This document shows, one piece after another, positions 20,886 to 64,000 of a stretch of 64,000 nucleotides of DNA (the first letter of the stretch is position 1; each line of letters opens with the position of its first letter). The notes below the pieces were generated by a model. The model made no database searches. It was not told where the DNA came from and saw nothing but the letters and a program-made list of their open reading frames with translations. The position numbers and the translations under genes are program-made. Source of the DNA: an uncultured Chloroflexia bacterium. Lineage in GTDB: Bacteria; Chloroflexota; Limnocylindria; Limnocylindrales; CSP1-4. The stretch is taken from positions 13,110-77,109 of the forward strand of contig CAVQJC010000007.1 of the NCBI GenBank assembly GCA_963712745.1, given 5' to 3'.

Positions 20886-20904
20886 GGCGCGCACGTCTAG
20901 ACTT

Positions 20905-21523: not shown

Positions 21524-21527
<4 letters not shown>
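20994..21527 (+). CDS. Rrf2 family regulator (IscR-like, three Cys)
   Basis: FSTRGEYG, YLEQL, STRGARGGYEL, C-x10-C-x5-C; start uncertain. Confidence 0.9.
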
Positions 21528-22441
<914 letters not shown>

Positions 22442-22508
22442 CGCGACCATTCGATACCGGCCCGCGGAGCCATCCCGCCCCGCCTGACCGAAGTCGGAGA
22501 CGCGACCG

Positions 22509-23798
<1,290 letters not shown>

Positions 23799-40056: not shown

Positions 40057-40111
40057 CGCCGCAGTCTACTGTCCCTCAGGGGCCGGTTTCGCCGCCGCGC
40101 CCGCCCGCTGG

Positions 40112-40921
40112 TCAGGAGCGGGCCTCGAGGGCGGCCACGAGATCGTCCTCGGTGGGCGTCGAGCCTAGGCCCATGCGGGCGCCGATGCGGGCCGCCGCCG
40201 GCGGCTCGAGGCGCGCCGCGCGCAGCGTCGGCCAGACCGCCTCGGCGAAGACCTCCGCGGGTGGGCCATCGAGGACGACCCGGCCGCGGTCGAGCAGCAC
40301 TACCCGCTCGAACGTCTCAGCCACGAAGCGCAGGTCGTGGCTGGCCACGATCACCGTCCGTCCCTCGGCGTGCAGGTCACTGACGATGCGCTGCACGCAG
40401 GCGATGCCCCCGCTGTCGAGTCCGGTGGTAGGTTCGTCCAGCGCCACGACCGGCGTCTCCATGGCCAGCACGGCCGCGATCGTGAGCAGCTTGCGCTGGG
40501 TCTCTCCAAGGTCGTCCGGATGTCGCCCGAGGTCGCCGGCCATGCCCACAGCCCCGAGCGCAGCCTGGACTCGTGCGAACGCCTCTTCGATCGTCAGGCC
40601 CTGGTGACTCGGCCCGAACTCGACCTCGTCGCGTACGCTGCCGGCGAAGATCTGGCGGTCCGGATGCTGGAAGCCGAGGCCCACGATGCGCGCCAGCCGA
40701 GCAACGTGCAGGCGGGCAGCATCCTTGCCCTCCACCAGTACTCGCCCCCTGGCTGGGCGCAGCAGGCCGTCGAGATGACGCAGGAGCGTGGTCTTGCCGC
40801 TGCCGTTGGCCCCGATGAGTGCCACCGTCTGCCCCCCGGGGATGGCCAGGTCGACCCCGTCGAGAGCAGATACGCCGTCCTCGAACTCGTAGGCCAGGCC
40901 CTCCAGGCGTAACTCCGTCAT
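40112..40921 (-). CDS. ECF transporter ATPase
   Basis: GANGSGKT, FQHPDRQIF, LDEPTTGLD. Confidence 0.88.
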   Translation of the reverse strand: MTELRLEGLAYEFEDGVSALDGVDLAIPGGQTVALIGANGSGKTTLLRHLDGLLRPARGRVLVEGKDAARLHVARLARIVGLGFQHPDRQIFAGSVRDEVEFGPSHQGLTIEEAFARVQAALGAVGMAGDLGRHPDDLGETQRKLLTIAAVLAMETPVVALDEPTTGLDSGGIACVQRIVSDLHAEGRTVIVASHDLRFVAETFERVVLLDRGRVVLDGPPAEVFAEAVWPTLRAARLEPPAAARIGARMGLGSTPTEDDLVAALEARS

Positions 40922-41721
40922 GTGCCGGACTCCAGCCGCCCCGGGTCAAGCCCGGCCGCGACGAGGCGACGGCGGAGGCGTGCCTCGGCCAGCGGTTCCA
41001 CCCCCAGCGCGGCCACGCCCGCGTCAGCCAGTACCTCGGCCGCGGGTCCTCGAGCCACGATGTTGCCGGCCGCGATGATGGCGACGGTGTCGCAGACCGA
41101 GGCCAGCATGTCCGTGCGCTGCTCGGCCACGAGCACCGAGGTCCCGGCGGCGGCGATGGCCCCGATCGCCTCAAGCACGGCGCCGGCCCCCGCCGCGTCG
41201 AGGTGCGCGACCGGCTCGTCGAGGATGAGGTGACGCGGGCGCATGGCCAGCAGACCGGCGATGACCACGAGCTGCTGCTGGCCGCCGGAGAGCCGCTCGG
41301 GCTGGCGCTCGCGCAGGTCCGCGATACCGACCGCCTCGATGGCCTCTTCAGCCCTGGCCAGGACCTCCGGCCGAGGCAGGCCCAGGTTGGCAGGTCCGAA
41401 GGCGACCTCGTCGAACACCGTGTCGGCGATGAGCGACAGCTGACCGGTCGGATCCTGTAATCCCGTGACGATGTGCTCGGTGAGCCGGTGCATGGGCCAA
41501 CGCTTCACGTCCTCGCCGTCGAGGCTGATGTCGCCGACCACACTCCCACCCGTGACCCGTGGAGCCAGGCCGCCGGCCACCAGGCAGAGCGTGGACTTGC
41601 CGCCCTCCGAGGGACCGGCGAGACCGGTGACGGTGCCGTCCATCAACTGCAGGTCGACTGCGTGGAGCGACTCGCCGGACGCTCCGGGGTAGCGGTAGGA
41701 GACGCCGCGGAGGTTCAGCAT
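40918..41721 (-). CDS. ECF transporter ATPase
   Basis: GPSEGGKS, EVAFGPANLG, LSGGQQQ; start MLNLRG. Confidence 0.88.
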   Translation of the reverse strand: MLNLRGVSYRYPGASGESLHAVDLQLMDGTVTGLAGPSEGGKSTLCLVAGGLAPRVTGGSVVGDISLDGEDVKRWPMHRLTEHIVTGLQDPTGQLSLIADTVFDEVAFGPANLGLPRPEVLARAEEAIEAVGIADLRERQPERLSGGQQQLVVIAGLLAMRPRHLILDEPVAHLDAAGAGAVLEAIGAIAAAGTSVLVAEQRTDMLASVCDTVAIIAAGNIVARGPAAEVLADAGVAALGVEPLAEARLRRRLVAAGLDPGRLESGT

Positions 41722-42467
41722 GGCAGCGTTCCAGCCAGACGCGCCAGCCCCAGCAGCACGAGCCCGGCCGCGACCCCCCATCGAGCCAGGCGCTGCAGTG
41801 GGCTGTCGGGGGGTGGATGCATCACGGTCGGGCGGCCGGGCCGGGTGAAGCCGCGCGTCTCCAGGGCCAGCGTTCGCGTCTCCACCTCGCGTATGGCGGA
41901 GAGCACGGTGGGCGCCGCGACCGCGACCACTCCGCGACCACGCCGCAGCCAGCTGCCCTCGGTGTCGAGGCCTCGCGCACGCTGTGCCTGAGTGACCTCG
42001 CCTGCCCGTTCGGCCAGTCGCGGGATCATGGCCACGCCGTTGTGGATGACGAACGTCGCCCGTGCTGACAGGCCATGGTGCTGCAGGCTGGCCACCAGCT
42101 CCGACGGCCGGGTGGTGGCGTAGAAGAGCACCGCGGCTCCGGCCATGGTCAGGACGCGAGCTACCACCTCCGCCGCCAGCCACATGCCCTGCTCCGTGGT
42201 GCCGACCGCGAAGAGCACGTTGACGATGACGACGCTGAGCGCCAGTGGCAGGGCCAGCAGCAGCGAGGTGGTGAGCACCGCTCGCAGCTCTCGTGCCACG
42301 AGGGCCGGCAGCACCACCGCGACCAGGGCCAGGGCAGCCGTGCAGGCGACCCCGCTGAGGAGGGCCGCCGCCGCGAGGGTGCCCACGGCCACCACCAGCC
42401 GGGTCAGCGGGTCCAGGCCCTGCCAGGCAGAGCCCGTGTGCCGGCTACGCGACGCGGTCGCCGACAT
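41715..42467 (-). CDS. ecfT: ECF transporter T component
   Basis: LDPLTRL, AQRARG and LETRGF motifs. Confidence 0.88.
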   Translation of the reverse strand: MSATASRSRHTGSAWQGLDPLTRLVVAVGTLAAAALLSGVACTAALALVAVVLPALVARELRAVLTTSLLLALPLALSVVIVNVLFAVGTTEQGMWLAAEVVARVLTMAGAAVLFYATTRPSELVASLQHHGLSARATFVIHNGVAMIPRLAERAGEVTQAQRARGLDTEGSWLRRGRGVVAVAAPTVLSAIREVETRTLALETRGFTRPGRPTVMHPPPDSPLQRLARWGVAAGLVLLGLARLAGTLPC

Positions 42468-43509
42468 CCTCGCCATCGGGCAACGGGAGCAGGTATTCGC
42501 CCTGTGGGAAACGAGCCTTGGTACGTGTGGCCATGGCCCCAAGGATGAGGTAGACCACGAAGTACGTGATGACCTTGTCGACCGGGTCGGAGATCAGGCT
42601 CTGGCCCAACACCGCCTGCTGCAGGTCCGCACCGGCCTGCCGGAAGGCGGCGATGACGAAGTCTGCGCCGGAGCCGGTCACGCCTCCGAAGAGGCCGGCC
42701 GCGATGGGTGCGGCGATGAAGGCCGCGACCACGCCGGTGATGACGCCGGCCAGGACGATGTAGGCGGCTCCCAGGTCGCGCCAGCGGACGAGCAGGACGA
42801 CGAGGCCCACGGCCGTGCCCACCACCAGCAGCAGGGCCACCCAGCCGAGGATGACGAAGGCCGTCTCGTCGGCAGCAGGCGCGAGGCCCTCGCCGTCAGC
42901 AGCCGCCAGCCACGCCCGCAGCGCGAGCACCACCATGACCACCACCGCGCCGACGGTCAGCGCGCCGCCGATCGCCAGCCGCCGGCCGGAGGTGCCGCGT
43001 CGCGGCCGTAGCCAGCCCCAGCGCGCGAATGAGCCGGCCAGCAGCCCGACCACCACGGCCACCACCGCGAACGGCACCGCGAAGGGGCTGCTGAAGGGAG
43101 GGGGTGCGAGATAGGTCCAGATGACGTTGGAGAGGAACCCGGTGGCGGCGCCCGCCAGAGGGCCGGCCAGGGCAGCCACCAGGATGGTGCCGACGGAATC
43201 GAGGTAGATGGGGATCTTGAGCGCGCTGGCGACAGCGGTGCCGAGCACGATGTTGAGGGCCATGGCCACCGGCATCAGCACCAGCGTGCGCGTGTCGAAC
43301 TGGCGCGTGATGGAGTCGATGCGGCGGGTCTGCGCGTATTCCACCAGGGCATAGGCGACGACACCTGCGGGGATGGCCACGACCATCACCAGCGTGAACC
43401 GGTCGAGCGCATCCTCGAGGGTGAGCCCACCCAGGGCGGCCAGGCCGGCCAGCGCGATGAGGCCGAAGACGGCGAGGCCGGCACCGACCCGCAGCCACGT
43501 CTGCGACAC
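42445..43509 (-). CDS. ECF transporter S component (extended)
   Basis: KIPIYLDSVGT...AGPLAG, GGVTGSG, DPVDK; GAGGAGG RBS before GTG. Confidence 0.8.
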   Translation of the reverse strand: MSQTWLRVGAGLAVFGLIALAGLAALGGLTLEDALDRFTLVMVVAIPAGVVAYALVEYAQTRRIDSITRQFDTRTLVLMPVAMALNIVLGTAVASALKIPIYLDSVGTILVAALAGPLAGAATGFLSNVIWTYLAPPPFSSPFAVPFAVVAVVVGLLAGSFARWGWLRPRRGTSGRRLAIGGALTVGAVVVMVVLALRAWLAAADGEGLAPAADETAFVILGWVALLLVVGTAVGLVVLLVRWRDLGAAYIVLAGVITGVVAAFIAAPIAAGLFGGVTGSGADFVIAAFRQAGADLQQAVLGQSLISDPVDKVITYFVVYLILGAMATRTKARFPQGEYLLPLPDGEDVGDRVA

Positions 43510-43592
43510 GCCCACCTCCTCGCTCGATCTCGCTCCCTCTCCCGCGCGACAGAGTGCCACGAACCCACCGACGCAGCGTCTAGCATCGAGGC

Positions 43593-44960
43593 ATCAGCTT
43601 CACGACCGTCGCCTTCGCCCTCTTCCTCGTGGCCGTCGTCGCGGGCCACTGGCTCCTCCCGCGTCGCCTTCGGCCGTGGTGGCTGCTGGGCGCGAGCATC
43701 CTCTTCTACGCCACCTGGAACGTGGTCTACGTGCCCGGGTTCCTGCTGCTCATCGGCGCCAACTACCTGCTCGGCATCGCGGCCGCCGGACGGCACGCCA
43801 GGGCCGCGACCATCGCCGCGGTGGTCCTGGACCTGGTCATCCTGGGTGTCTTCAAGTACCTCGACCTGGCCCTCGGCAGCAGCGCTTCGCTGCTCAGCTG
43901 GATCAGCGGTGAGACCGTCGACTGGGGCGGCCTCGGGTTCGTGCTGCCGTTGGCCATCAGCTTCGTCACCTTCACGCTCATCGCCTACGTCGTCGATATC
44001 TACCGTGGTGCGGAGCCGGAGCGGAACATCGTCCACTTCGCGGTCTTCATCGCCTTCTTCCCGCGCGTCCTGGCCGGTCCCATCATGCGCGGCAGCCAGT
44101 TCCTGCCCCAGCTGCGCTTCGGGCGCGGATTCAGCCTGCCGCTCGTCCACATGGCCGTGCCGCTCATCGTCAGCGGCCTCTTCAAGAAGTCGCTGGCGGA
44201 CCAGCTCGGACCGGTGGTCCGCGACGGCTTCAGCGACAGCGGGTCCTACTCGTCGATCGCGCTCTTTGCCATCGCCGCGGCCTGGACCTTCCAGCTCTAC
44301 CTCGATTTCGCCGGCTACACCGACCTCGCCAGGGGATCTGCCCGCCTGCTCGGCATCGGCATGCCGCGCAACTTCGACTGGCCCTACCGCTCCCTGTCGA
44401 TGGCCGAGTTCTGGCGGCGCTGGCACATGACCCTGGGGACCTGGCTCCGCGACTACCTTTACTTCCCGCTGGGCGGCTCGCGCAAGGGCTCGGTCCGTAC
44501 CTACGTCAACCTCATGATCACCATGACCCTGGCCGGCGTGTGGCACGGGGCCGGGCCCGGGTTCGCGGTCTGGGGCGTGCTCCAGGGCGTGGGCCTCTCG
44601 GTCAACCGCTGGTGGCGGCGCCTGCCCTCGCACCCGGTACTGCCGGTCCTGCTCTCGTGGGCCGTCACCTTCACCTTCGTCGTCCTCGCGCGCGTGCCCT
44701 TCGTGGCGCCGGACCTCGAGACCGCCGCCGAGTATTACACCCGCATGCTCATCCCCCACGGCGGCGCCCTGCCCAGCCTGGCGCTCGTGGGCACCCTGGC
44801 GGTGATGATGATCGGCCAGTGGAGTGGCTGGGTCAGCCTCGCCCGGCGCGCCGCCCCGCGGCGATCGGCCCGGCGCTGGCTGGCCTATGGTGTAGCCCTT
44901 GCCATCGCCGTCGTCCTGCTCCCCGCCGGGGCGCCCGACTTCATCTACCAGCAGTTCTAG
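43593..44960 (+). CDS. MBOAT O-acyltransferase (AlgI/PatA/DltB-like)
   Basis: FKY, LPLAISF, AGPI, QLYLDFAGY, NFDWPY, FWRRWHMTL, WHGA; start possibly ATC 43593 or GTG 43629. Confidence 0.9.
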   Translation: MSFTTVAFALFLVAVVAGHWLLPRRLRPWWLLGASILFYATWNVVYVPGFLLLIGANYLLGIAAAGRHARAATIAAVVLDLVILGVFKYLDLALGSSASLLSWISGETVDWGGLGFVLPLAISFVTFTLIAYVVDIYRGAEPERNIVHFAVFIAFFPRVLAGPIMRGSQFLPQLRFGRGFSLPLVHMAVPLIVSGLFKKSLADQLGPVVRDGFSDSGSYSSIALFAIAAAWTFQLYLDFAGYTDLARGSARLLGIGMPRNFDWPYRSLSMAEFWRRWHMTLGTWLRDYLYFPLGGSRKGSVRTYVNLMITMTLAGVWHGAGPGFAVWGVLQGVGLSVNRWWRRLPSHPVLPVLLSWAVTFTFVVLARVPFVAPDLETAAEYYTRMLIPHGGALPSLALVGTLAVMMIGQWSGWVSLARRAAPRRSARRWLAYGVALAIAVVLLPAGAPDFIYQQF

Positions 44961-50179: not shown

Positions 50180-50467
50180 ATCTGTCCCTCCGCGCCCCTG
50201 GGGGCTGCGTTTCGCTCGCGACACGGGACCGGGCTCGCCACTGCTCAGCGTGATCCGGCTCGGCGACCGTCGGTGGATCACGCGTCTTCGCTTCCCGTCT
50301 TGGACTAGGCTCGGATGCTCGCTTCCGAGTCTATCGAGAAGCCATCAAGGATTCGTGACGGACGACTACATCAGAGCGCAGCGGACCGCACTTTGTGGTG
50401 CGTGCGGTCACCAACCCCTCGTGCTGCCCATCGGGCCGTGCCGCTGGCCCTGCCGGCGCTTGCCGTG

Positions 50468-53984: not shown

Positions 53985-54047
53985 GAATCGCCAGGCGTAC
54001 GATGTCTGGTCGTCGTCGCCATGGCGCAGGCAGCCGAGGCGGCGCGA
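53985..54047 (+). repeat. Array repeat R0 (terminal copy, divergent left half)
   Basis: GAATCGCCAggcgtacgatGTCTGGTCGTCGTCGCCATGGCgcaGGCAGCCGAGGCGGCGCGA. Confidence 0.85.
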
Positions 54048-54208
54048 GCAAATCAGCCGGTGGGCACGGCTGGTCGCCGACTCCTAGCTCTCGCCTACTC
54101 CTTGGTCTCGGCCCACGCTCCAGCCGGGTGCGCTTGCGCTGGCGCCGCGTATCTCTTCAACTCGCTCTGGGTTCGCCGTCCATCGAGCCGCCATCGACCG
54201 GTCGGTCA

Positions 54209-55108
54209 TCACTCCTCTGGATGGAGTTGGTAGACGAGGAACGTCTCGGTGAGCGGCAGGGTCGGGGGCTGCTCGAAGATGTCGAAGTGGTCGGCGTCTA
54301 TCTCGGCGTAGACGAACTCCCGGTCGACCTCGGCGAGGGCTGCCGCCAGGTTCCGGGACGCCTGAACGTCGACGTTGGTGTCGCGGGTGCCGTGGATGAT
54401 GAGGATGGGCACGGTCTCCGCATCGACGAGGTAGGCGGGCGAGACCGCACGCCACGCGGCGGGGTCATCCTCGTAGCTGGCGCCCAGCAGGCTCTCGTAG
54501 ACCGCCGTCTGCTCCGGGTACGGGTTGCCGATCGTGAGGTCGACGTCGCCCGAGACGCTGACGACGCAGGTGACGCGGCTCGAGATGCCCGCCATGTCAG
54601 GGTCACTCGTGTCGCGGGCATCGGTCATGCCGACCAGCGACGCGAGGTGGCCACCGGAGGAATGGCCGAGGGCGCAGATCCGGTCGGGGTCGACGCCGTA
54701 GTCCGCCGCGTGAGCGCGGATCCAGCGGACCGCTGCCTGGGCATCCTCGAGTTGTGCCGGCCATGGGTTCGTGCCCGTCGACGGATCGTGGAGGCGGTAG
54801 CCCGCCGCAAAGGCCACGTAGCCAGCCTCGGCCATCTGGCGTGCAGAGTCGAGGACCCACAGCGGATCCCCGATGTCGTATCCGCCGCCGGAGAAGAAGA
54901 CGACGGCGGGCCGTGGCGCGGTCCGAGGCTCTGGCTCGTAGGCATGGATAACCTGCTTTGGGTCTTCGCCGTACTCGAGGGACGTCGTGAGGCTCGGCCA
55001 CGCGCTCTGTTGGTTCGGCTCCTCCGACTGAGCCACGACCGCACTGCCCAGTCCGCTGAGCAGTGCCAAGATGACCGTCACCGACAGGGACAGTCGCAAC
55101 GTCCGCAT
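54209..55108 (-). CDS. Cassette 1: secreted alpha/beta hydrolase (esterase)
   Basis: Signal MRTLRLSLSVTVILALL; GHSSGG nucleophile, HGTRD, DADHF. Confidence 0.9.
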   Translation of the reverse strand: MRTLRLSLSVTVILALLSGLGSAVVAQSEEPNQQSAWPSLTTSLEYGEDPKQVIHAYEPEPRTAPRPAVVFFSGGGYDIGDPLWVLDSARQMAEAGYVAFAAGYRLHDPSTGTNPWPAQLEDAQAAVRWIRAHAADYGVDPDRICALGHSSGGHLASLVGMTDARDTSDPDMAGISSRVTCVVSVSGDVDLTIGNPYPEQTAVYESLLGASYEDDPAAWRAVSPAYLVDAETVPILIIHGTRDTNVDVQASRNLAAALAEVDREFVYAEIDADHFDIFEQPPTLPLTETFLVYQLHPEE

Positions 55109-55249
55109 GACATCCCCCTTTGCTGCGCGGGCCGGTTTCGCCAGTGGCTCGGCGCGGTCCTCGGCGGCCAGGATGTGGGCCGCGCGTCAGAGCCTCCCGC
55201 TACTGGTGATTCTCTCGCGGGCGTCTATCCGCTCCGCAGCCACTATCCG
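55109..55249 (-). promoter_or_regulatory. Conserved cassette leader L1
   Basis: Homologous to five other leaders; ends in GGGGG RBS. Confidence 0.8.
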
Positions 55250-55295
55250 GAATCGCCATGAATAGCGGGTTATGTCTGGTCGTCGCCGCCCTGGC
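55250..55295 (+). repeat. Array repeat R1
   Basis: GAATCGCCATGAATAGCGGGTTATGTCTGGTCGTCGCCGCCCTGGC. Confidence 0.95.
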
Positions 55296-55364
55296 GTCAG
55301 GCTGCTGGGCCGTCCCGGCCCTCGACTGCCGAGCGTCGCAGGCAGCGGAGGTGGCGCGAGGGGT

Positions 55365-55886
55365 CTACTCGGCAGGTAGTCCTGGCATCTCGCCCGAGAC
55401 GATGACGCCGTTCCACGAGTCCAATCCGCGGAAGCCGAACTCCGGATCGGCATAGAGGATGGCCGTGAGGCCGCCGTATCCACCGGCCCCGCTGAGTACG
55501 AGTTGCTCGATATCGATCCCCGGATCTCCGTCGATGAAGACCCTGGTGCCGTTGCCCGACCACGACCCTCCTTCGTTGGCGATCTCCACCCTCGAGGAGA
55601 TCAGGCCGAAGCCGTCGTACGCCCGCTCAGCCATGACGACGGAGCCGTCGCCGGTGAGCCGTGGATCGTCCATCACGAGACCGAAGCACCAGGTCCAGCT
55701 GGCCGTGCCGTCGTCGAGTTCGGTGAAATCCTCCTCCAGCTCGCACGGCACGCTCGCGCCGCCAATCGGACTCATACCCCCGCTCACGACGACGGCTTCA
55801 TCGTCCTGCGCTGCGACACTGACCGCTGAGCCCGCCAGCTGGCCGATGGTGAGGAGCGTGATGATGCCGATCCTGATCGTTCCCAT
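55365..55886 (-). CDS. Cassette 2: secreted hypothetical protein (DPRL/GxYxGL family)
   Basis: Signal peptide ending AAQ; DPRLTG, GSWSG, GAGGYGGL. Confidence 0.8.
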   Translation of the reverse strand: MGTIRIGIITLLTIGQLAGSAVSVAAQDDEAVVVSGGMSPIGGASVPCELEEDFTELDDGTASWTWCFGLVMDDPRLTGDGSVVMAERAYDGFGLISSRVEIANEGGSWSGNGTRVFIDGDPGIDIEQLVLSGAGGYGGLTAILYADPEFGFRGLDSWNGVIVSGEMPGLPAE

Positions 55887-55996
55887 GGTCTCTCCCTCGA
55901 TACTCACGCTGGCGAGTCGATCCCGCCTGTACCAGGTAGACGATTCTCGAGGCGCAGGCGTCCCACGAGCCGTTGCTGCAACGCCGCCCCATGCGA

Positions 55997-56042
55997 GAAT
56001 CGCCATGAATAGCGGGTTTGGTCTGGTCATCGCCGCCATGGC
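55997..56042 (+). repeat. Array repeat R2
   Basis: GAATCGCCATGAATAGCGGGTTTGGTCTGGTCATCGCCGCCATGGC. Confidence 0.95.
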
Positions 56043-56095
56043 CGCGCACGCCACGGGCGCCACCATGGCGACGCCAGCCGAGGCGGCGCGATGGG

Positions 56096-56608
56096 TTAGT
56101 CGGTGGGAAGCGGCAGCGGTGGCGGGTCACCGGCGTAGACGATGCCCTCGACAGTCCCGGGTTCGCCGAAGTCGGCCACGGCGCGACCGACGAAGACGAG
56201 GCCGTCGTATGCATCGGTCCCGCTGTACACGACGTAGCTGTTGGCTCGTTGCTCGGGGTCGTGGGTGCCCGCATAGGCGCCCACCCACGTGCCATCGGGA
56301 CCAGCGATTTCTTGGGTGCCCCAGTAGGTGCACGGCCATTCGCTGAAGCAGTCCTCGTTGTAGACCTTCGTGGCGACACCGCTCAGTCGGGGATCGGACA
56401 TCTCCGAGGTGCACACGAGGCCCATGCCACGGTAGCTCTTCACCTCACCTTCGGTGGTGACCTCAGGGCCTTGTTCGACGATGCAGTCGACATCAGTCCC
56501 GGTCACCCAGATGGCTGCCTCCTCGTCCTGCGCCAGGACCGCTCCGCTCACATCAGCGGCCAGCGCCAAGATGACCGTCACCGCCAGGGACAGTCGCAAC
56601 GTACGCAT
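56096..56608 (-). CDS. Cassette 3: secreted hypothetical protein (DPRL/GxYxGL family)
   Basis: Signal MRTLRLSLAVTVILAL; DPRLSG, GTWVG, GTDAYDGL. Confidence 0.82.
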   Translation of the reverse strand: MRTLRLSLAVTVILALAADVSGAVLAQDEEAAIWVTGTDVDCIVEQGPEVTTEGEVKSYRGMGLVCTSEMSDPRLSGVATKVYNEDCFSEWPCTYWGTQEIAGPDGTWVGAYAGTHDPEQRANSYVVYSGTDAYDGLVFVGRAVADFGEPGTVEGIVYAGDPPPLPLPTD

Positions 56609-56738
56609 GTCATTCCCCCTCACGCGCGGGTCGGGTTCGCCAGTGGCTCAGCGCGGCCCCGGCGGCCATAGTCAGGGACCTGCGCGTCACAGCCTCCCAC
56701 TACGGACGATTCTCTCGCGGGCGTCCATCGCCTCGCTG
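56609..56738 (-). promoter_or_regulatory. Conserved cassette leader L3
   Basis: + strand GGGTTCGCCAGTGGCTC...GCCTCCCACTAC...GATTCTCTCGCGGGCGTCC. Confidence 0.8.
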
Positions 56739-56785
56739 GTATCGCCATGAAGAGCGGGTCTTGATCTGGTCGTCGCTGCCATGGC
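56739..56785 (+). repeat. Array repeat R3
   Basis: GTATCGCCATGAAGAGCGGGTCTTGATCTGGTCGTCGCTGCCATGGC. Confidence 0.92.
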
Positions 56786-56812
56786 GCAGACAGCCGAGGT
56801 GGCGCGATGGGG

Positions 56813-57928
56813 TTACTCGGCGGGCGGCTCCACGGGGTCGGGCATCGGCGCCACCAGCTCGCTGGGCACGATCATACCCCACGAACTCATGCTGAGGCGG
56901 TCGGCGGACTCGTGAAGGAAGAGGGTCAGGCCGTCATAGCCGGCCTCGCCCGTCATCTTAGTCATGCTCGCGATCCCCCCGACCTGGTCGGAGCTAGCCG
57001 CGATGATCTGCGATGAGCCCGACCAGGCGCCGTCGTCATTGACGAGCCGTGCCGTGATCGACCAGTTCTGCACTTGGGTGTGTTCGGATCCGAACCCGGT
57101 CCGGTTCTGCCACGTCGTCATCAGCCCGGATGCTCGCGGGTCGGTCGCTGTGATCCGGTCCACCTGCACCACCCCGCGCGACTCGGTCACCGAACCGTCC
57201 GCGCTCTCGTTGTCGGTGCCCCAGTCCGGCTCTTCGGCCTGCTCGGACGTGAAGACGAAGGCCGCCGGTGCCATCGGGTCCGCCGGTCCCTCAGCGGACG
57301 AGGACGCGATGGCCTCGGGATCGGGTGCCATCTGCATCAGGAACCCTTCTCCGGGCACGGCCTCAGCCGGCTCGGGGAAACCAGGAACCTCACCCTCGAA
57401 GATCCAGCCGTCGTACGCGACATCCCAGGGTCCGTGGGCATCCACGTCGGGCGTACCGCGCAGGAACGCGTGCAGGCCGTCGTAGGCACCCTCCCCCACC
57501 AGTTGGTAGTAGCTGTCGCGATCGTCAGGCGACTCGAAGGCCCGACCCGTTCCGCGCCAGATCCCTTCGTCATCGACGAGCAGGTGGCTCGTCTCGAGCG
57601 TCATCACGCCGGCCTCGGGGTCGTCGCCGTAGATGGCGAGGTTGAGCCGGATCCAGTGCTCGCTCGGGAGGCGTGGGTCGCTCCACTCCACGCGCTGTCC
57701 GAAGGTGTGGCCCTGTTCGCGCAGGACGCCCGCCTCGTCACTGGACGTGACGGTGTCTTCCGCTTGCTGCTCGACGTACTCGCCCGTCTCGGTGGACAGC
57801 TCTAGGACCGTGCCGGTCACATAGGCGGGCGTGGATGGTTCCTCGCTCTGGGCGGCCGCCTCCATCGCTGTGCCGACGAGCATCGCCGCGATGACCGGCC
57901 CCACCAGGAATGCTGGTGCCGTACGCAT
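56813..57928 (-). CDS. Cassette 4: secreted protein with two DPRL/GxYxGL domains
   Basis: Signal peptide; SDPRL..GIWRG..GEGAYDGL and TDPRA..GAWSG..GEAGYDGL. Confidence 0.82.
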   Translation of the reverse strand: MRTAPAFLVGPVIAAMLVGTAMEAAAQSEEPSTPAYVTGTVLELSTETGEYVEQQAEDTVTSSDEAGVLREQGHTFGQRVEWSDPRLPSEHWIRLNLAIYGDDPEAGVMTLETSHLLVDDEGIWRGTGRAFESPDDRDSYYQLVGEGAYDGLHAFLRGTPDVDAHGPWDVAYDGWIFEGEVPGFPEPAEAVPGEGFLMQMAPDPEAIASSSAEGPADPMAPAAFVFTSEQAEEPDWGTDNESADGSVTESRGVVQVDRITATDPRASGLMTTWQNRTGFGSEHTQVQNWSITARLVNDDGAWSGSSQIIAASSDQVGGIASMTKMTGEAGYDGLTLFLHESADRLSMSSWGMIVPSELVAPMPDPVEPPAE

Positions 57929-58058
57929 GACATCCCCTTTGCATGCGCGGGTCGGGTTCGCCAGTGGCTCGGCGCGGTCCAGGCGGCCATTGCTGGGGCC
58001 GCGTCTCATCGCCTCCCGCTACGAACGATTCTCTCGCGGACGTCCAACAGCGATCCCA
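57929..58058 (-). promoter_or_regulatory. Conserved cassette leader L4
   Basis: Homologous to L1 and L3. Confidence 0.8.
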
Positions 58059-58104
58059 GAATCGCCATGAATAGCGGGTCATGTCTGGTCGTCGCCGCCA
58101 TGGC
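58059..58104 (+). repeat. Array repeat R4
   Basis: GAATCGCCATGAATAGCGGGTCATGTCTGGTCGTCGCCGCCATGGC. Confidence 0.95.
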
Positions 58105-58184
58105 ACGCGCATACGGCCAGGCCGACCTGCGACCAACCGGGGCGTGAGGCGCCAAGGGCGTCGCGGCGATGTTCGGCAACCGTC

Positions 58185-58379
58185 CTACGACGCTGGGACC
58201 TTCTCGATCACGAGAAGGAAGTCCACGCGGGGCATCCACAGGAACCCTATGGTGACGTTCGGGACGATGCTCACGACCTCTCCCTCCAGGTCGTTGAGGA
58301 AGCGCTCGAGGTTCGCCTCATCCTTCGTCATCGAGACATCGATGCGATGCACTCGGTACCGGTGGCCGGTGGCTGCCAT
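58185..58379 (-). CDS. Cassette 5: small hypothetical protein (64 aa)
   Basis: MAATGHRYRVHRIDV...LEGEVVSIVPNV...VDFLLVIEK; GAGGGGG RBS. Confidence 0.75.
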   Translation of the reverse strand: MAATGHRYRVHRIDVSMTKDEANLERFLNDLEGEVVSIVPNVTIGFLWMPRVDFLLVIEKVPAS

Positions 58380-58524
58380 GTGGATGCCCCCTCGTATGCG
58401 CGGGCTGGGTTCGCCAGTGGTTCGACGCGGCCCAAGGCGGCCATCGTCGACGGACCGCGCGTCAGCGCCTCCCGCTGCGTCGATTCTCTCGCGGGCGTCC
58501 ATGGGCTCGCGATGGCGCTCGGCG
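58380..58524 (-). promoter_or_regulatory. Conserved cassette leader L5
   Basis: Homologous to L1, L3 and L4. Confidence 0.8.
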
Positions 58525-58570
58525 AGATCGCCATGTATAGAGGGTCATGGCTGGTCGTCGCTGCCATGGT
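58525..58570 (+). repeat. Array repeat R5
   Basis: AGATCGCCATGTATAGAGGGTCATGGCTGGTCGTCGCTGCCATGGT. Confidence 0.9.
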
Positions 58571-58698
58571 GATGCACACGGGTCGGCGTCCAGCCCATGA
58601 CCTGAGGAACGGCCCGCCGTCTGAACGGCCCGACGTCTGACCGGCGCTGGACGATCGCAGCATCCAACGAGCGGGCGGCGTCCAGATGGAGGTGACTC

Positions 58699-59142
58699 TT
58701 GGCCGCCAGCGGCCGCATCACGGTTCACCTCGATCGCCCAGCCGAGGATGTCTTCGACTACGTCAGCAACGTCGAGAACAACCCACGATGGCGCACCGCG
58801 GTCATCGAGACGAGATGGCTCGATCCGGGACCCAACAGGCCCGGGCGTCGCGGCGAGCAGACATCGAGGATCCTCGGTCGCCGGCACACCGTCACGGCGG
58901 AGGTCGTCGACTGGGACCCGCCTCGACACGTCAGCTGGGCGACGACGGCTGGCGGCGCGGATGTCCGCACCCACTGTCGCGTCGATGCGGACGGCGACAG
59001 GTGCACCCTCACGCTCGAGTCGGAAGGGCAGTTCACCGGCGTGTGGCGACTCTTGACCCCGGTCGCGGCGGCGATGCTGCGCCGGCAGTCGATAGCTGAC
59101 ATCGAGCGCCTCCGGGCGGTCCTGGGGGACCGCCCAGGCTGA
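58699..59142 (+). CDS. Cassette 6: SRPBCC family protein
   Basis: DRPAEDVFDYVSNVENNPRW; GGAGGTGA RBS before TTG. Confidence 0.85.
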   Translation: MAASGRITVHLDRPAEDVFDYVSNVENNPRWRTAVIETRWLDPGPNRPGRRGEQTSRILGRRHTVTAEVVDWDPPRHVSWATTAGGADVRTHCRVDADGDRCTLTLESEGQFTGVWRLLTPVAAAMLRRQSIADIERLRAVLGDRPG

Positions 59143-59191
59143 CCCTGGGCCCGGCCATCTGCCGCCTCTGACGTAGCGATGGCGCTCTGCG

Positions 59192-59236
59192 GAACCGCCA
59201 TGGATGGCGGGTGGACCTGGTCGTCGCCGCCATGGC
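59192..59236 (+). repeat. Array repeat R6
   Basis: GAACCGCCATGGATGGCGGGTGGACCTGGTCGTCGCCGCCATGGC. Confidence 0.9.
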
Positions 59237-59319
59237 TGTGGGTTACAGCGGTCGGCGTCCGCTCCAGGGCGAACCTCGGGAGTCCCGCCGCCACAGTCGA
59301 CAAGACCACGCGGACCCTG

Positions 59320-59892
59320 TCACCTCTCCGCCGCTTCCGGCGAGGTTGGTTTCTCGAACCACACCAATCGATAGCGCATGACCTTGGGCTCGTCCTCCGC
59401 TTCGATGATGTCCTCGAACAGTTCATCGATGCGATGTTGCAGCTGCTGCTGGACGGTCTCGGGTTCCGCCTGGACCGTCTCTGCCTCGACGAGGTGCGCC
59501 GCCTTTACGCGCTCGATCATCGCGTTCCCGAGCGCCAGAGCGACGTCGCGGGCGGTCGTCGCGTCGTCGTCGCGAACCTCGATCCGCACCGTCAATGCAT
59601 CAGCGCGACTCGTCGCCGAGATCCGCTCGAGCAGACTCTCGGGGCGTTCGTCGAGGCCGAGCTTCTCGATGACCCGGGCAGCGACGGGCCGGGACCGGGC
59701 CAGCTGCGCGTAGCGCTCGGCACGCGCCTCTGCCTCGCGGAAGTCGGCGACGCTCGGAGCGGGCCCTGGGTCGACGCGCAGCAACGCCGTAGCCTCGTGG
59801 CCCAGCTGGGCGCGCGGCCCGCATGTGAGCACCATCGCAGCCAGGAGGGCCACGGGGGCCCCGGCGGCAGCGAGCCTGTGCGGTACGGACAT
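59320..59892 (-). CDS. Cassette 7: Wzz/YveK-like periplasmic-domain protein
   Basis: ATALLRV...YAQLARSRPVAARVIEKLGL...IEVRDDD..ARDVA resembles a chain-length regulator domain; lacks the C-terminal TM. Confidence 0.6.
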   Translation of the reverse strand: MSVPHRLAAAGAPVALLAAMVLTCGPRAQLGHEATALLRVDPGPAPSVADFREAEARAERYAQLARSRPVAARVIEKLGLDERPESLLERISATSRADALTVRIEVRDDDATTARDVALALGNAMIERVKAAHLVEAETVQAEPETVQQQLQHRIDELFEDIIEAEDEPKVMRYRLVWFEKPTSPEAAER

Positions 59893-60046
59893 CGGCTCCC
59901 CTTGGTGGCAGCATGCGGATACGCGGCTGCCTTCATGCTACGCCGCGGCTACGGGCACGGCGGCAGGCGTGGAGCATGCACCCGTTGTGCTCTTGGACGG
60001 TGACCGCGATGGGGCCCGGCTGGAACAGGCCAGCCTTGACACAGAC

Positions 60047-60092
60047 GAATCGCCATGCATAGCGGGTGATGTCTGGTCGTCGCCGCCATGGT
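60047..60092 (+). repeat. Array repeat R7
   Basis: GAATCGCCATGCATAGCGGGTGATGTCTGGTCGTCGCCGCCATGGT. Confidence 0.95.
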
Positions 60093-60118
60093 GCAGGCAG
60101 CCGAGAAGCGCGATCGGG

Positions 60119-60991
60119 TCAGTCGGCAGGCGTGGCCTCAGTGGGCCCATCGACATGCGTCAGCGTGGCGCTCAGCATGATCGCCAGCTCGTCCGAATCG
60201 TTTCGGATCACATGGACCGTGTCGTCCGCGAAGGATTCCGACGTGAGCTGGTCGGCGTCGGGCGCAATGAACCTGACCGAGTTGGTCAGCGCCGCGTCGA
60301 TCTCGGATGGGGCAGCGAAACCGCTCTCCAAGCGACCTGCTTCGAGCACCAGGAGGCGCAGCAACCCGGCCTCGTCAGACCCAAGCACGAGCTGGCCGCC
60401 GGGGTCGAACGTGAGTCGCTCGAACGTGACCGCGACCGGTGTCGCGAACAGGAGATCCACGGTCTCGGGTGGCAGCACGTTGAGGTCGAGGAGTCGCCAG
60501 TCCATGCCGGTGGGCAGGACCGGTGGCTCCGCGGGGTCATCACTGTCGCCGACCGACAGGGCATACGACACGAACGTCTCGGGCCCCTCGTTCGTGAAGC
60601 TCCTCCCGGCCCCACCGTTGTAGAAGAGCACGAGATCCCCGGCGTCCGCGCTGGCAGTCGTCCCGGCGGGAAGGTCCTCGGTCGCCCCGTCCGCTCGCCA
60701 GATCACCGCCCGGTCATTGTCCGTCCACGTGATCGAGCCGCGCTCGACGTACTCCAGGCTGGCCCATTCATGGGGCTGGGCCGAGCCGACTTCGCCGGTC
60801 ACGCCCGGCTCGATGCTGGTCCGAGCAATCCCGAGACGGACGGCGTCCTCGGGGATGGCCTCGCCAGGGATGACGCCGTGGTCGGCCAAGACCTTGACGC
60901 TGGCGCGGGGCACCTCTTCCTGTGCCAGCGCCGCGCTGCCCAGCAGCACCAGGATGACCGTCCCTGCCAGGGACAAGCGCAACGTACGCAT
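60119..60991 (-). CDS. Cassette 8: secreted tandem cupin-like protein
   Basis: Signal MRTLRLSLAGTVILVLL; IEPG..EYVERGSI..AGDLVLF..FTNEG and FDPG..LEAGRL..IRNDSDE. Confidence 0.75.
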   Translation of the reverse strand: MRTLRLSLAGTVILVLLGSAALAQEEVPRASVKVLADHGVIPGEAIPEDAVRLGIARTSIEPGVTGEVGSAQPHEWASLEYVERGSITWTDNDRAVIWRADGATEDLPAGTTASADAGDLVLFYNGGAGRSFTNEGPETFVSYALSVGDSDDPAEPPVLPTGMDWRLLDLNVLPPETVDLLFATPVAVTFERLTFDPGGQLVLGSDEAGLLRLLVLEAGRLESGFAAPSEIDAALTNSVRFIAPDADQLTSESFADDTVHVIRNDSDELAIMLSATLTHVDGPTEATPAD

Positions 60992-61130
60992 GCTGTTCCC
61001 CCTCGCTCACGCGGGCTGGGCCCGCCAGTCGCTCGGCACGGTCCAGGCGGCCACTGCTGGGACCGCGCATCATCGCCTCCCGCTACATGTGATTCTCGCG
61101 GCCGTCTATCGGCTCCGCAGCCACTCTCCA
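60992..61130 (-). promoter_or_regulatory. Conserved cassette leader L8
   Basis: Homologous leader; shares the GTCTATC.GCTCCGCAGCCACT segment with L1. Confidence 0.8.
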
Positions 61131-61176
61131 GAATCGCCATGTAGAGAGGGTTTGGTCTGGTCGTCGCCGCCATGGC
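61131..61176 (+). repeat. Array repeat R8
   Basis: GAATCGCCATGTAGAGAGGGTTTGGTCTGGTCGTCGCCGCCATGGC. Confidence 0.93.
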
Positions 61177-61230
61177 TAGGCACACCACAGGCAGCCGAGG
61201 CGGCGCGATGGATTACTCGGTGAGATCGCT

Positions 61231-62125
61231 TCAGGCACCCTTCTCCACCGGGTTCGAGGATCACTCGTCCACTCCTCCAGCGCTCCGTCGTACATGGCCA
61301 CGTCCTCGAAGCCCATGAGGTGCAGGACCAGCGCCGCGAAGGCGCCGTAGTAGCCGCCACCGCAGTAGGTGATGGTCGACTGCGCGGATCGAGCCCGGTC
61401 TCCTCCAGCATGACGGCGAGGTCCCCGGCCCCCTTGACCACGCCCGTGACGTCGAGCAGCTCGGGTGCCGGGAGGCTCACCGCACTGGGGATGTGCTCGT
61501 AGTCGTAGCTGCCGGAGGGTAGGGCGTCCACGATGTTGACGGCAGGATCGTCGATGGCGGCCCTGACCTCGTCCATCGCCACATACCACTCCGGTCGCAC
61601 CTCGGCCGTGAAGACGGCCGGCCCGATGACCGGCGCCTCCGTCTCGAGTGGCAGGCCCTCGGCCTCCCAGGCATCGATGCCGCCATCGAGGAGCTTGGCG
61701 TCCTCGTGGCCGTAGTACCGCAGCGCCCACCACACACGGGCTCCCCACAGCCCACCCTCATCGTCGTAGATGACAACGGTCGTGTCGTCCCCGATGCCCT
61801 TCTCGCCCATGAGCTCGGCGAACGGCTCGGCGTCCATGATGTCGGAGGGGCAACAGAGCTCATCGAAGATGTCGACGAGGACGGCTCCGGGGATGTGCCC
61901 TTGCGAGTAGAGGATCGGCCCATCCGCGCGAGCATCCACGATCCGCACGGACGGATCATCCAGGTGCTCAGCCAGCCGATCCGAGTCCACCAGGACCTCG
62001 GGATGGACGTATTCCACTGGGAGCTCGAAGGCGCCGCTCGACGAAGCCTCCTGCCCGACGGCCGGTACGCCCCCAAGCGCCAGGCACAGCACGACGGCCG
62101 CTCCCGCGGTCCAAAGCCTACGCAT
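61231..62125 (-). CDS. Cassette 9: secreted double-domain sulfurtransferase (rhodanese), frameshifted near 61385 and 61258
   Basis: GHIPGAV, RVWWALRYYGH, LDGG, HIPSA; ITYCGGG and YDGALEEW in the shifted frame. Confidence 0.85.
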
Positions 62126-62271
62126 CGCGATACCCCCTCTCCTGCATGCGGGCCGGGTTCGCCAGTGGCTCTGCACGGTCCAGGCGGCCATGATCAGCAG
62201 GCCGTGCTTCGGAGCCGCCCGCTACACCGATTCTCCCGCTGGCGTCCATCAAGTCCGCCTGAGCAGCGCAG
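62126..62271 (-). promoter_or_regulatory. Conserved cassette leader L9
   Basis: + strand GGGTTCGCCAGTGGCTC...CAGGCGGCCA...CCCGCTAC..GATTCTC. Confidence 0.8.
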
Positions 62272-62317
62272 GAATCGCCATGAATAGCGGGTTTGGCCTG
62301 GTCGCCGCCGCCATGGC
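62272..62317 (+). repeat. Array repeat R9
   Basis: GAATCGCCATGAATAGCGGGTTTGGCCTGGTCGCCGCCGCCATGGC. Confidence 0.93.
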
Positions 62318-62485
62318 TATCGCGGAGGCGGCCGAGGCGGCGCGGCGCAACCTATCCCCCGCTGGCGTCGGGGTGTAGACTGCCGCGCCTTGGGGGCCGT
62401 CACACGAGGAAGGTCAGCTCGCCACCATCTACTCGCGAGCCACATTCGGACCGAGCGGTCCGGCCAGGGTCCAGGGAGGTTCTCC

Positions 62486-62903
62486 ATGTCTGACAACAAG
62501 GCCACGATGCTTCGCCTCTACGACGAGGTCTTCAGCCAGGGCGATTTCGACCTCGGCGACGAGCTCCTGGCGGACGACTTCGTCGAGCACGAGGAGCTTC
62601 CGCCCGGGATCCGCCGGGCAAGGCGGCGCCGCAGTACTCATGACCATGATGCGTGCCGCCTTCCCCGACTTCCACGCGGCGGCCGAGGAGCTGCTCGAGG
62701 ACGGGGACAAGGTGATCGCCCGGGCACGCTTCTCCGGCACCGACCAAGGCGAGTTCATGGGCATCGCCGCGACCGGCAAGAGGTTCGACATCGCCGTCAT
62801 CGACATCATCGAGTTCCGCGATGGCAAGGCGATCGCCCACTGGGGGGTCATGGACATGGCCGGGATGATGGAGCAGCTCGGCATCGGCGGGCCGCCCGCG
62901 TAG
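62486..62903 (+). CDS. Cassette 10: SnoaL-like ester cyclase (frameshift ~62610-62640)
   Basis: LYDEVFSQGD..DELLADDFVEH, then AAFPD..EDGDKV..GEFMGIAATGK..FRDGK..HW..D. Confidence 0.85.
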
Positions 62904-62946
62904 GCCTCCCCACTGGGCCGCCCAATCGCCGGCGAGCGCTTCCCCA

Positions 62947-62995
62947 GGATCGCCACCGTGAATGATGGGTTGGGTCTGGTCGTCGCCGCCATGGC
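62947..62995 (+). repeat. Array repeat R10
   Basis: GGATCGCCACCGTGAATGATGGGTTGGGTCTGGTCGTCGCCGCCATGGC. Confidence 0.88.
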
Positions 62996-63274
62996 CACAC
63001 ACGCTGCCGGTCCGTCCGGCCCTGACTCCGCTGACCCGGGTGCGGAGGATGGAGGGCGTGATGCGCATGTGAGTCGGACACTGTCAGGGTTGTTGGTCCT
63101 GGGTGCAGGCGACCTGGGGGCGACATAGCCGGGATCTGCGGCCGGAAACCCAGTGAGGGCCAGAAGATGTCGCAGTGATTCCGATTCGCTCATCCCTGGA
63201 CCGTGGGTCCGGAAAGTGGGCGCTCCGGTGACCTTCAGCCCTGTGTCGATCTCGCCCTGCCGGCCGACCTTGTC

Positions 63275-63756
63275 ATGATGACAAGCCGCCTCAGTCGCAA
63301 GGAGAGCGTCGGCCTCTGGCTGTACCGCAACCTCGACAAGCGCTTCAGTCGGCCTCAGCGTGGCTCTCTTTCGTCGCACCAGGGTGGGTTGACCGAGCGC
63401 GTGAACGTCGATGCCCTCGTCCTGACGACGGTCGGACGGAAGAGCGGCCGCCGCCGCAGGTCCTGCTGCAGTACTTCCGTGATGGTGACGACATGCTGCT
63501 GGTGGCGGCCGACGGTGAAGCAGTTCGCCATCCCGGCTGGTTCGACAACCTCATGGCGGTACGAGACGCCAGGGGCTGAGATGCGTGGCCAGGCCGGGTT
63601 GGTGCATGCGACGAAGCTGTACCAAACGGAAGCCGAGGACGCTGGCCAGCGTTTCCTCGCCGCTCTCCTGACTACGAGCGATACCTTCGCGCTACCGAGC
63701 GCAGTATCCCGATCGTCCGCCTGCACCCGGCATATGCCGCGACCTCAGATGTCTGA
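63275..63756 (+). pseudogene. Cassette 11: deazaflavin (F420)-dependent nitroreductase family, multiply frameshifted
   Basis: LVLTTVGRKSG, DGDDMLLVAADG..HPGWFDNL and RSIPIVRL lie in different frames. Confidence 0.75.
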
Positions 63757-63862
63757 TCGTGACGCGGCGATGCTGGTCGAAGCTCGCCGAGCCCTCGAGC
63801 TGAGCCGGACGAAGCGTCCGCCGCCATGTTGCCGCCCGTCATGCCGAGGTGGGGGTTACCCG

Positions 63863-63908
63863 GTTACGCCATGAATAGCGGGTGCGGTCTGGTCGTCGCC
63901 GCCACAGC
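63863..63908 (+). repeat. Array repeat R11
   Basis: GTTACGCCATGAATAGCGGGTGCGGTCTGGTCGTCGCCGCCACAGC. Confidence 0.92.
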
Positions 63909-64000
63909 CACGCACGCCGCTGGGCCGTCTGTGCCCTGAGCCTGGCGCGAGCGGGGGTGACGGATCGGGGTGGAGGATCGCTGATGCCGCACTCGGCCAA

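Follow-up and report, generated by a model that had tools for sequence, protein, structure and literature searches.

Genes and repeats at the locus

The 64,000-nucleotide (nt) stretch analysed here, called the window throughout, spans positions 13,110 to 77,109 of contig CAVQJC010000007.1 (C7 below) of an uncultured Chloroflexia bacterium (GCA_963712745.1), whose genome (G000) is a bin of 4.2 Mb with 68% GC, 84.6% completeness and 5% contamination. Three minus-strand open reading frames (ORFs) of the window, at 54209-55108, 56096-56608 and 60119-60991, open with 44 nt of closely similar DNA coding for the start of a signal peptide. We found these openings to be part of a longer head, comprising a riboswitch, a ribosome-binding site and the signal peptide, of which the genome holds many copies; the copies share DNA-level homology, go together with the riboswitch and stand on mature domains without detectable homology to one another.

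As reported in the preliminary description of this DNA, 55065-55108 and 56565-56608 were identical at 42 of 44 nt (2 mismatches), and 60948-60991 was a close variant, agreeing with the first copy at 36 of 44 nt and with the second at 38 of 44 (82 to 86%, counted from the codon table). The third copy lies outside the 3-mismatch range of the first, and a search with the 44-mer at that limit lists two sites; the 44-mer of 55065-55108 had no match in any of 100 dinucleotide shuffles. The 44-nt match proved to lie at the 3' end of some 320 nt of homologous DNA, which reach from an array repeat to the signal peptide, and to be the best-conserved part of the head, with DNA identity continuing for about 230 to 300 nt upstream of it in multiple and pairwise alignments. 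Compared pairwise, the three genes were about 80% identical from -120 to +75 of the ATG and about 50% identical (noise) past about +90. The breakpoints, whose mapping had been suggested along with the module idea discussed below, thus fell in the signal-peptidase region at about +90 nt.

A multiple alignment of twelve intergenic regions (54.0 to 64.0 kb of the window) gave the following order in gene sense: the stop codon of the upstream gene touching module A (..CCCCATCGCGCCRCCTCGGCTG..), a variable spacer, the 45-nt repeat B, another spacer, likewise variable, the P box (GACGCCCGCGAGAGAATC), a structured leader of 85 nt, a Shine-Dalgarno sequence (SD), the ATG and a signal peptide ending AQ(S/D/E)EE, the peptide consensus of the block being MRTLRLSL..AQ(S/D/E)EE. 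The features of the window are as follows (SDPRL, a protein family named after its ..SDPRL.. motif; aa, amino acids; AF2, AlphaFold 2; c-di-GMP, cyclic di-GMP).

50217..50304, minus strand: variant aptamer outside the array, ahead of a DUF5658 membrane-protein gene (Rfam, Pfam)
53988..54070, minus strand: terminal array element, the last array repeat; module A plus a 5-nt-shorter variant of repeat B (..CCAGACATCGTACGCCTGGCGA)
54209..55108, minus strand: BD-FAE alpha/beta hydrolase, 299 aa (PF20434, E 1.4e-41)
55019-55108, minus strand: coding region of the hydrolase signal peptide MRTLRLSLSVTVILALLSGLGSAVVAQSEEP (sequence)
55122..55206, minus strand: c-di-GMP-II-GAG/GCG variant aptamer (65.5 bits, gathering score 40)
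55208..55225, minus strand: P box GACGCCCGCGAGAGAATC, promoter-like, touching the 5' end of the aptamer (genome-wide motif map)
55250..55294, minus strand: array repeat B, 45 nt (repeat search)
55343..55367, minus strand: module A, touching the stop codon of the upstream cassette gene (alignment)
55365..55886, minus strand: SDPRL-barrel paralogue with its own signal peptide MGTIRIG.., no aptamer (family alignment)
55997..56041, minus strand: array repeat B (repeat search)
56096..56608, minus strand: SDPRL barrel protein, 170 aa, signal peptide MRTLRLSLAVTVILALAADVSGAVLAQDEEA (family alignment, AF2, Foldseek-type search)
56620..56706, minus strand: variant aptamer (53.9 bits)
56739..56815, minus strand: repeat B and module A without spacer (alignment)
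56813..57928, minus strand: two-domain SDPRL protein, 371 aa, signal peptide MRTAPAFLVG..AAAQSEEP (BLASTP)
57940..58025, minus strand: variant aptamer (64.5 bits)
58059..58103, minus strand: array repeat B (repeat search)
58185..58481, minus strand: small ORF of 64 aa that lacks a signal peptide and follows an aptamer at 58395-58481 (Rfam, ORF)
58525..58569, minus strand: array repeat B (repeat search)
58699..59142, plus strand: SRPBCC/polyketide-cyclase cassette gene, antisense to the repeats (PF10604, E 1.4e-21)
59192..59235, minus strand: array repeat B (repeat search)
59320..59892, minus strand: cassette ORF, 190 aa, no Pfam match, no aptamer (Pfam)
60047..60122, minus strand: repeat B together with module A, the pair overlapping the bicupin-like gene's stop codon (alignment)
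60119..60991, minus strand: bicupin-like protein, 290 aa, signal peptide MRTLRLSLAGTVILVLLGSAALAQEEVP (AF2 and structure search)
61005..61089, minus strand: variant aptamer (61.5 bits)
61131..61215, minus strand: repeat B and module A (alignment)
61106..62228, minus strand: rhodanese cassette, frameshifted near 61380, MRRLW-type signal peptide, aptamer at 62143-62228 (Pfam, Rfam)
62272..62316, minus strand: array repeat B (repeat search)
62976-62994 and 63889-63907, minus strand: further repeat B copies; the array reaches the contig end at 64000

The leader is an orphan riboswitch present in many copies

The structured leader matched the c-di-GMP-II-GCG/GAG variant riboswitch aptamer (Rfam RF03170/RF03169, clan CL00127). 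Seven aptamers of the window scored above the gathering score (43.5 to 65.5 bits versus 40 and 47.9), covering model positions 1 to 85 or 86. At E ≤ 0.01 there were 48 aptamers in G000 with RF03170 and 45 with RF03169, compared with 0 to 30 per genome in 24 other genomes of the genus and 0 in 16 of 16 genomes of the sister family. Most of the 48, including all seven of the window, stood in sense orientation and ended 10 to 20 nt ahead of a start codon, with an SD in between that began 0 to 8 nt past the aptamer end; the aptamer at 55122..55206, for example, stops 13 nt short of the ATG and has the SD GGGGGA in the gap. Because a gap of 10 to 20 nt between aptamer and ATG is too short for a terminator, the aptamer likely controls the start of translation. 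According to our own reading of the list of starts, the protein behind about 31 of the 48 begins in the manner of a signal peptide; others of the 48 stand ahead of genes for SRPBCC, methyltransferase-like or small membrane proteins.

To our knowledge, the c-di-GMP-II-GCG/GAG variants have no validated ligand. They were reportedly proposed by Weinberg et al. in 2017 (PNAS). Compared with aptamers of this kind in general, those described here differ by their very high copy number (48 in one 4.2-Mb genome) and by the fusion of 19 of them to one homologous signal-peptide coding segment. The c-di-GMP-II variant of a 2026 PNAS paper is an engineered Bacillus halodurans aptamer and not one of these natural variants (PMC13715770).

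The P box occurred in 23 copies in G000 at ≤3 mismatches, 16 of which adjoin aptamers in our reading of the motif map, and may be a promoter. We also considered the signal-peptide codons as an expression platform that pairs with the SD and rejected this, since RNAalifold on 18 heads gave no conserved pairing; the pairing GGGGG:UCCCU decays in the heads without compensation (judged by eye), and the same RNAalifold run on the 18 heads gave no conserved pairing by which the constraint on the head could be accounted for. A tree of the aptamers (87 columns) was nearly unresolved, with two well-supported branches only, and labels clustered weakly on it (27 changes of head type versus 37.8 after shuffling; 33 changes of genome versus 38.5).

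Riboswitch runs also occur without the array repeat: in the related genome G001, which has zero copies of repeat B, contig C4 (locus L014) carries two tandem S-adenosylmethionine riboswitches (303-400 and 741-831) next to four tandem c-di-GMP-II-variant aptamers (4265-6689). Within G000, an identical aptamer with an identical 441-aa ORF was present on two contigs (C2:108374-108458 and C20:4101-4185), which is either a true duplication or redundancy of the bin, given its contamination of 5%. Short Logan contigs over 54000-63999 of the window (runs X1-X3) reached a word depth of about 600x on aptamer and leader bins and of 2x to 20x on gene bodies; a head depth of about 600x in sediment and estuary metagenomes implies that the head is very abundant there, across many genes or organisms. 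Pieces of 200 to 550 nt with 0 to 2 differences were present in one marine-sediment, one estuary and one soil run, and one RNA library held three pieces (192 to 303 nt, 0 to 2 differences), by which transcription is not thereby shown. Read joints with sides of 21 to 44 nt, for which repeats or other organisms are possible sources, were not used for or against cassette excision.

The signal-peptide DNA is shared by descent

A nhmmer profile of the signal-peptide DNA (63 nt) had 22 matches in G000 at E < 1e-3, 14 of which had themselves been used to build the profile. Nineteen of the 22 lay directly behind an aptamer; of the other three, one is at a contig start, where this cannot be judged, and two have no aptamer. 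The fourth codon, for Leu, was TTG in 12 of 14 M-R-(T/R)-L starts, even though TTG makes up 4.5% of the Leu codons in 1741 long ORFs, and at Arg5 the rare codon CGA (8.8% of Arg codons) recurs. A shared rare TTG codon argues for descent and against convergence at the protein level.

Read from the sequence and not from a predictor, the peptide appears to have Sec-type traits (n-region MRTLR, h-region LSLAGTVILALLGGL and end ..AVVA|Q, the stroke marking the presumed cleavage point), and in the AF2 model of the 56096-56608 protein residues 2 to 28 form a low-confidence helix ahead of the barrel; the peptide would be expected to take its product into the Sec pathway. Peptides of a second type, MRRLWAAGAA.., also stand on a variety of passengers, among them a rhodanese and periplasmic binding proteins. 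Weak matches of the signal-peptide DNA profile further revealed another multi-copy N-terminus, MFSALKF(I/V)AA.VIVALFGGFLLAG, at no fewer than 10 places in G000 (at least 10; examples are C20:649208-649234, C4:6988-7013, C8:6309-6333 and C17:372171-372194), which is a separate paralogous family or module.

The mature proteins are unrelated

The preliminary description had named the three mature proteins as an alpha/beta hydrolase, an unknown domain and a cupin-like protein. The first assignment stood, with a Pfam match to BD-FAE (142.9 bits versus a cut-off of 26.8), the other two mature parts having none. The "unknown domain" is the SDPRL barrel: the AF2 model of the 56096-56608 protein (mean predicted local distance difference test score [pLDDT] 84.7) shows an 8-stranded barrel, to which the structure search put DUF3224, allene-oxide-cyclase and AbyU-type folds closest, with a best E of 1.7e-3 and a target-normalised template modelling (TM) score of up to 0.72. 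The cupin-like assignment was retained on a weak structural fit, as the AF2 model of the 60119-60991 protein (pLDDT 68) matched the bicupins MncA and pirin in Foldseek at E 5e-7 with TM scores of only 0.2 to 0.4. Paralogues of the bicupin-like gene are present at C17:165150 (79% aa identity) and C10:172687 (38%), and one paralogue has a Cupin_2 match of E 1.4e-5, below the cut-off; a search for related loci among genome contigs with the bicupin-like protein gave a single irrelevant match of 20 residues.

Homology of the mature regions, which would have spoken against the module idea, was not detected in the three hhalign pairs compared without signal peptide (0.2%, 0.3% and 0.1%), whereas the SDPRL and bicupin families aligned with a probability of 97% when the signal peptide was included, over the first columns only. 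In the genome as a whole, the mature parts of 30 signal-peptide-bearing riboswitch genes fell into 14 BLASTP clusters. SDPRL was the largest, with 11 members and an invariant DPR motif, and is represented in the window by 55365-55886, 56096-56608 and 56813-57928. Other passengers included a sortilin/BNR propeller, a META domain and a Peripla_BP_4 domain fused to SDPRL, and DUF4886 appeared among the riboswitch-headed passengers as a weak match below the cut-off.

The open frame of the rhodanese cassette gene (61106-62191, minus strand) continues across modules A and B; the true C-terminus is coded in another frame at 61176-61748, which places a frameshift near 61380. Riboswitch-led ORFs at C4:295717, C17:172729 and C4:294836 look frameshifted right after the signal peptide, like the rhodanese gene; these are either pseudogenes or assembly indels.

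Repeat B punctuates cassette arrays at conserved loci

Repeat B was present in 35 copies in G000, confined to three arrays (C7:67115 to the contig end, which is also the window end; C10:37597-52695; C17:157969-175907). It also punctuates arrays of sister species, with at least 5 copies in 12 of 49 genomes of the genus and mostly 0 or 1 in the rest. The array loci are conserved, lying either beside hisA or beside icd-nudix-DUF5658-MarR, and few cassettes are common between species. Within an array, repeat B keeps one orientation while the diverse cassette genes lie on both strands; the riboswitch-led genes all follow the orientation of the repeat. In each of the seven arrays examined, the closing repeat is the same variant, shorter by 5 nt, and there is one composite site.

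An integron integrase was sought with TIGR02249 in G000 and five relatives, where the best matches reached 85 to 87 bits versus a cut-off of 265, are Xer-like and lie far from the arrays. No recombinase gene flanked the arrays in the neighbourhoods examined, the only mobile-element gene there being an IS21 pair beside array a of the related genome G014. On that contig (C12, locus L015), a heliorhodopsin gene and the IS21 pair (Mu-transposase C-terminal domain and IstB) occupy 83-3699 directly upstream of array a. The same contig carries two arrays of opposite orientation 17 kb apart, 15923-22634 (plus strand) and 39793-44140 (minus strand), with the conserved icd-nudix segment between them (match 31990-33968) and an aptamer-led DUF5658 gene near 34.3 kb.

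As single-stranded DNA, repeat B folded no better than its shuffles (z -1.6 to +0.95 for seven copies, both strands). The repeat alignment held no compensatory changes between the arms and, in our own reading, no GTTRRRY box at the end, and four copies had no Rfam match at E ≤ 5. A classic attC site and integron was rejected on this basis (no IntI, no hairpin and no Rfam match on repeat B).

Age of the fusions and exchange of cassettes

Cassettes shared between arrays gave a direct view of exchange. The hydrolase of the window (54209-55108) has a 100% identical protein at C17:173680-174576, and the whole cassette (C7:68310-67097) matched C17:173587-174800 at 99%, with the 5' crossover inside the aptamer and the 3' end inside the terminal repeat; identity to the C17 copy stops at window position 53988, beyond which lies the native flank. 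The paralogue at 55365..55886 likewise has a 98% identical DNA copy in the C17 array. The second shared cassette (98%) ran from the core of repeat B to the middle of module A, and the third, a whole unit common to two arrays on one contig of G014 (99.5%), began with the first base of module A and stopped at the final base of the repeat B that follows. Such variable edges inside shared homology fit homologous recombination or gene conversion with the head and the A and B repeats as arms, whereas the polar terminal repeat and the exact edges of the G014 case keep a site-specific mechanism possible.

The hydrolase family was present in 9 of 49 genomes of the genus. Its relatives had both aptamer and signal peptide at four loci and the signal peptide without an aptamer at L034. 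At L038 (contig C23 of genome G052) a periplasmic binding protein precedes the hydrolase, the two being fused precisely at ..GAAQSEEPD... In the 606-aa ORF there (1498-3330, minus strand) the sugar-binding-protein domain has an MRRLW signal peptide of its own and is followed by the BD-FAE hydrolase, and the junction keeps a remnant of the hydrolase signal peptide (..GAAGAAQSEEPD..). An MRTLRLSL-type peptide is retained in metagenome relatives of the hydrolase to as little as about 45% identity, the more distant ones having Tat-like or other signals; two of their gene calls read through the aptamer, which is therefore present in these relatives too.

Head copies were about 75 to 84% alike over the aptamer and the 66-nt signal peptide whatever the passenger, in a star-like pattern. 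The head module is thus old and strongly constrained, and the match at 42 of 44 nt is the top of this distribution and not a fresh event.

A probable portable head and its alternatives

The view that leader, ribosome-binding site and signal peptide act as a reusable expression and export module is largely right, because the head is linked to the riboswitch, the rare codon is shared and the mature parts are unrelated. What holds is the homologous leader-SD-signal-peptide DNA on unrelated mature parts; what does not is recent assembly, since the fusions are old and fresh recombination was not seen. We consider it probable that the P box, aptamer, SD, ATG and signal peptide form a portable head that is used on unrelated secreted proteins and enters new combinations by recombination. 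In such a head the P box and the c-di-GMP-II-GCG/GAG variant aptamer would be followed by the SD, the start codon and a peptide of Sec type with the end ..A-x-x-A-Q-(S/D/E)-E-E, and it would place any passenger under one ligand-controlled, secreted regulon. New pairs of head and passenger would arise by recombination within the conserved segments on either side of each passenger (the aptamer, the end of the signal peptide, and repeats A and B of the array), most likely by homologous recombination or gene conversion, and the fusions now present would be old ones kept by selection. The riboswitch and the cassette-array repeats, neither of which the preliminary description had noticed, are the likelier recombination substrates.

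Several observations weigh against this portable head. The fusion of hydrolase and head appears to be ancient, given that homologues down to about 45% identity keep the MRTLRLSL-type peptide, and a comparison of head identities found no fresh event linking the three heads of the window. In species whose housekeeping DNA is 79 to 85% identical to that of G000, heads are nearly the same over the first 30 nt, and strong selection on the sequence, as opposed to exchange, may explain this near-identity. The C7-C17 duplicates could in principle stem from two strains (the genome being a bin with 5% contamination), a scan for sigma-70 promoters returned 0 sites, and joint travel of aptamer and peptide type was not shown on the aptamer tree (18 changes of the TLR label over 32 rows).

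That the similarity is one of protein-level convergence or of a genome-wide signal-peptide style, with no shared DNA ancestry, was a natural objection to the module idea, as signal peptides are short and compositionally constrained and the AQ(S/D/E)EE end is also found on the second (MRRLW..) type. It is hardly credible in view of a rare codon common to one fixed position, DNA-level copies directly behind the riboswitch in 19 of 22 cases and homology unbroken through the SD and aptamer. Recent gene conversion between neighbouring cassettes of this array could have made the heads alike, and the hydrolase and SDPRL genes, 1.5 kb apart, not only share 42 of 44 nt but both have Val at codon 10, where the other tabled copies have Gly or Ala. 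This pair was nevertheless 82% identical over 66 nt, no higher than to heads on other contigs (0.83 to 0.84), their aptamers are 78% identical, and the metagenome hydrolase homologue P0006 also has Val at this codon, which makes recent conversion improbable.

How the arrays are built allows two further explanations. A dedicated site-specific cassette system, integron-like but new, might build the arrays and shuffle their content, with repeat B as the recombination site, the variant last repeat as the primary chromosomal site and the recombinase encoded elsewhere. It would account for the confinement of 35 repeat B copies to three arrays in G000 and for at least 5 copies in 12 of 49 genomes with 0 or 1 in most others, as well as for the uniform repeat orientation despite genes on both strands, the conserved loci (hisA or icd-nudix) with largely different cassette sets between species, the same shorter variant repeat at the end of all seven arrays with one composite site, and a duplicated G014 unit whose edges lie exactly at repeat edges. 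Against it stand the absence of any integron integrase in G000 and five relatives, where the best matches are far from the arrays, and of a recombinase gene beside the arrays examined; the three shared cassettes end at three different repeat positions, which fits homologous recombination better than a fixed crossover, and repeat B folds no better than shuffles, with no compensatory changes seen. We regard such a system as possible but doubtful. An ordinary integron remnant with attC sites, of the kind called CALIN (attC-site clusters without an integron-integrase), shares the array architecture, the variable cassettes and the absence of a neighbouring integrase with the published description (PMC4889954), but repeat B has no R''/R' inverted-repeat hairpin (z -1.6 to +0.95, as above), no GTTRRRY box at its end in our reading and no Rfam match at E ≤ 5 over four copies, and this explanation is very improbable.

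Comparison with known systems

The closest functional precedent for the portable head is Borrelia erp (OspE/F-related, "upstream homology box"), in which one ancestral promoter/operator and leader peptide stand on ORF remainders of independent origin that recombine (PMC10016077). The logic is the same, with one ancestral upstream and leader-peptide sequence on mature parts of independent origin, and we do not claim membership: the regulator here is a riboswitch and in erp a protein operator, the peptide here lacks a lipobox cysteine (..AVVAQSEEP), the cassettes are chromosomal in an environmental bacterium whereas erp lies on cp32 prophages, and the passenger folds include enzymes.

With sedentary chromosomal integrons and CALIN the arrays share tandem cassettes, a repeat in one orientation, many genes that are unknown or accessory, and content that differs among sister species at a conserved locus; like CALIN (PMC4889954), they have no integrase nearby. 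They differ in several respects: six genomes had no IntI, the repeat lacks a hairpin, both strands hold genes, many cassettes bring a riboswitch head of their own, and the special variant site stands last in the array, at the far (3') end, whereas in an integron attI is at the 5' end. In runs of the DUF1874 motif a structured element likewise occupies consecutive intergenic regions (RNA, ORF, RNA, ORF); the authors asked whether it might be an unusual attC site, and they saw no integrase (Weinberg et al. 2017, NAR, PMC5737381). That motif is a different one; in the arrays described here riboswitch and repeat B alternate, and repeat B also precedes genes without a riboswitch.

Implications

It is conceivable, albeit at less than even chance, that the arrays represent an undescribed cassette system with fixed loci, a non-hairpin 45-nt site, a terminal site, head-bearing cassettes and a recombinase acting in trans that is not IntI, or two Xer proteins. 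If so, newly captured domains would at once be ligand-regulated and secreted, and the integron idea would, if these integrase-less arrays with polar repeats are mobile, extend to a different site and enzyme. If the arrays are only recombination-prone clusters of paralogues, they would still be a clean and testable case of concerted reuse of regulatory and targeting sequences. The locus brings together an orphan-riboswitch regulon, a plug-in head and integrase-less arrays, subjects for the most part treated separately. A regulon of 48 copies of an orphan riboswitch, mostly ahead of secreted proteins, offers strong gene-context clues to the ligand, and the head could serve as a ready-made part for expression and secretion. 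As a plug-in that would join small-molecule control to export for unrelated folds, the head would be a rare instance of bacterial domain shuffling at a defined junction.

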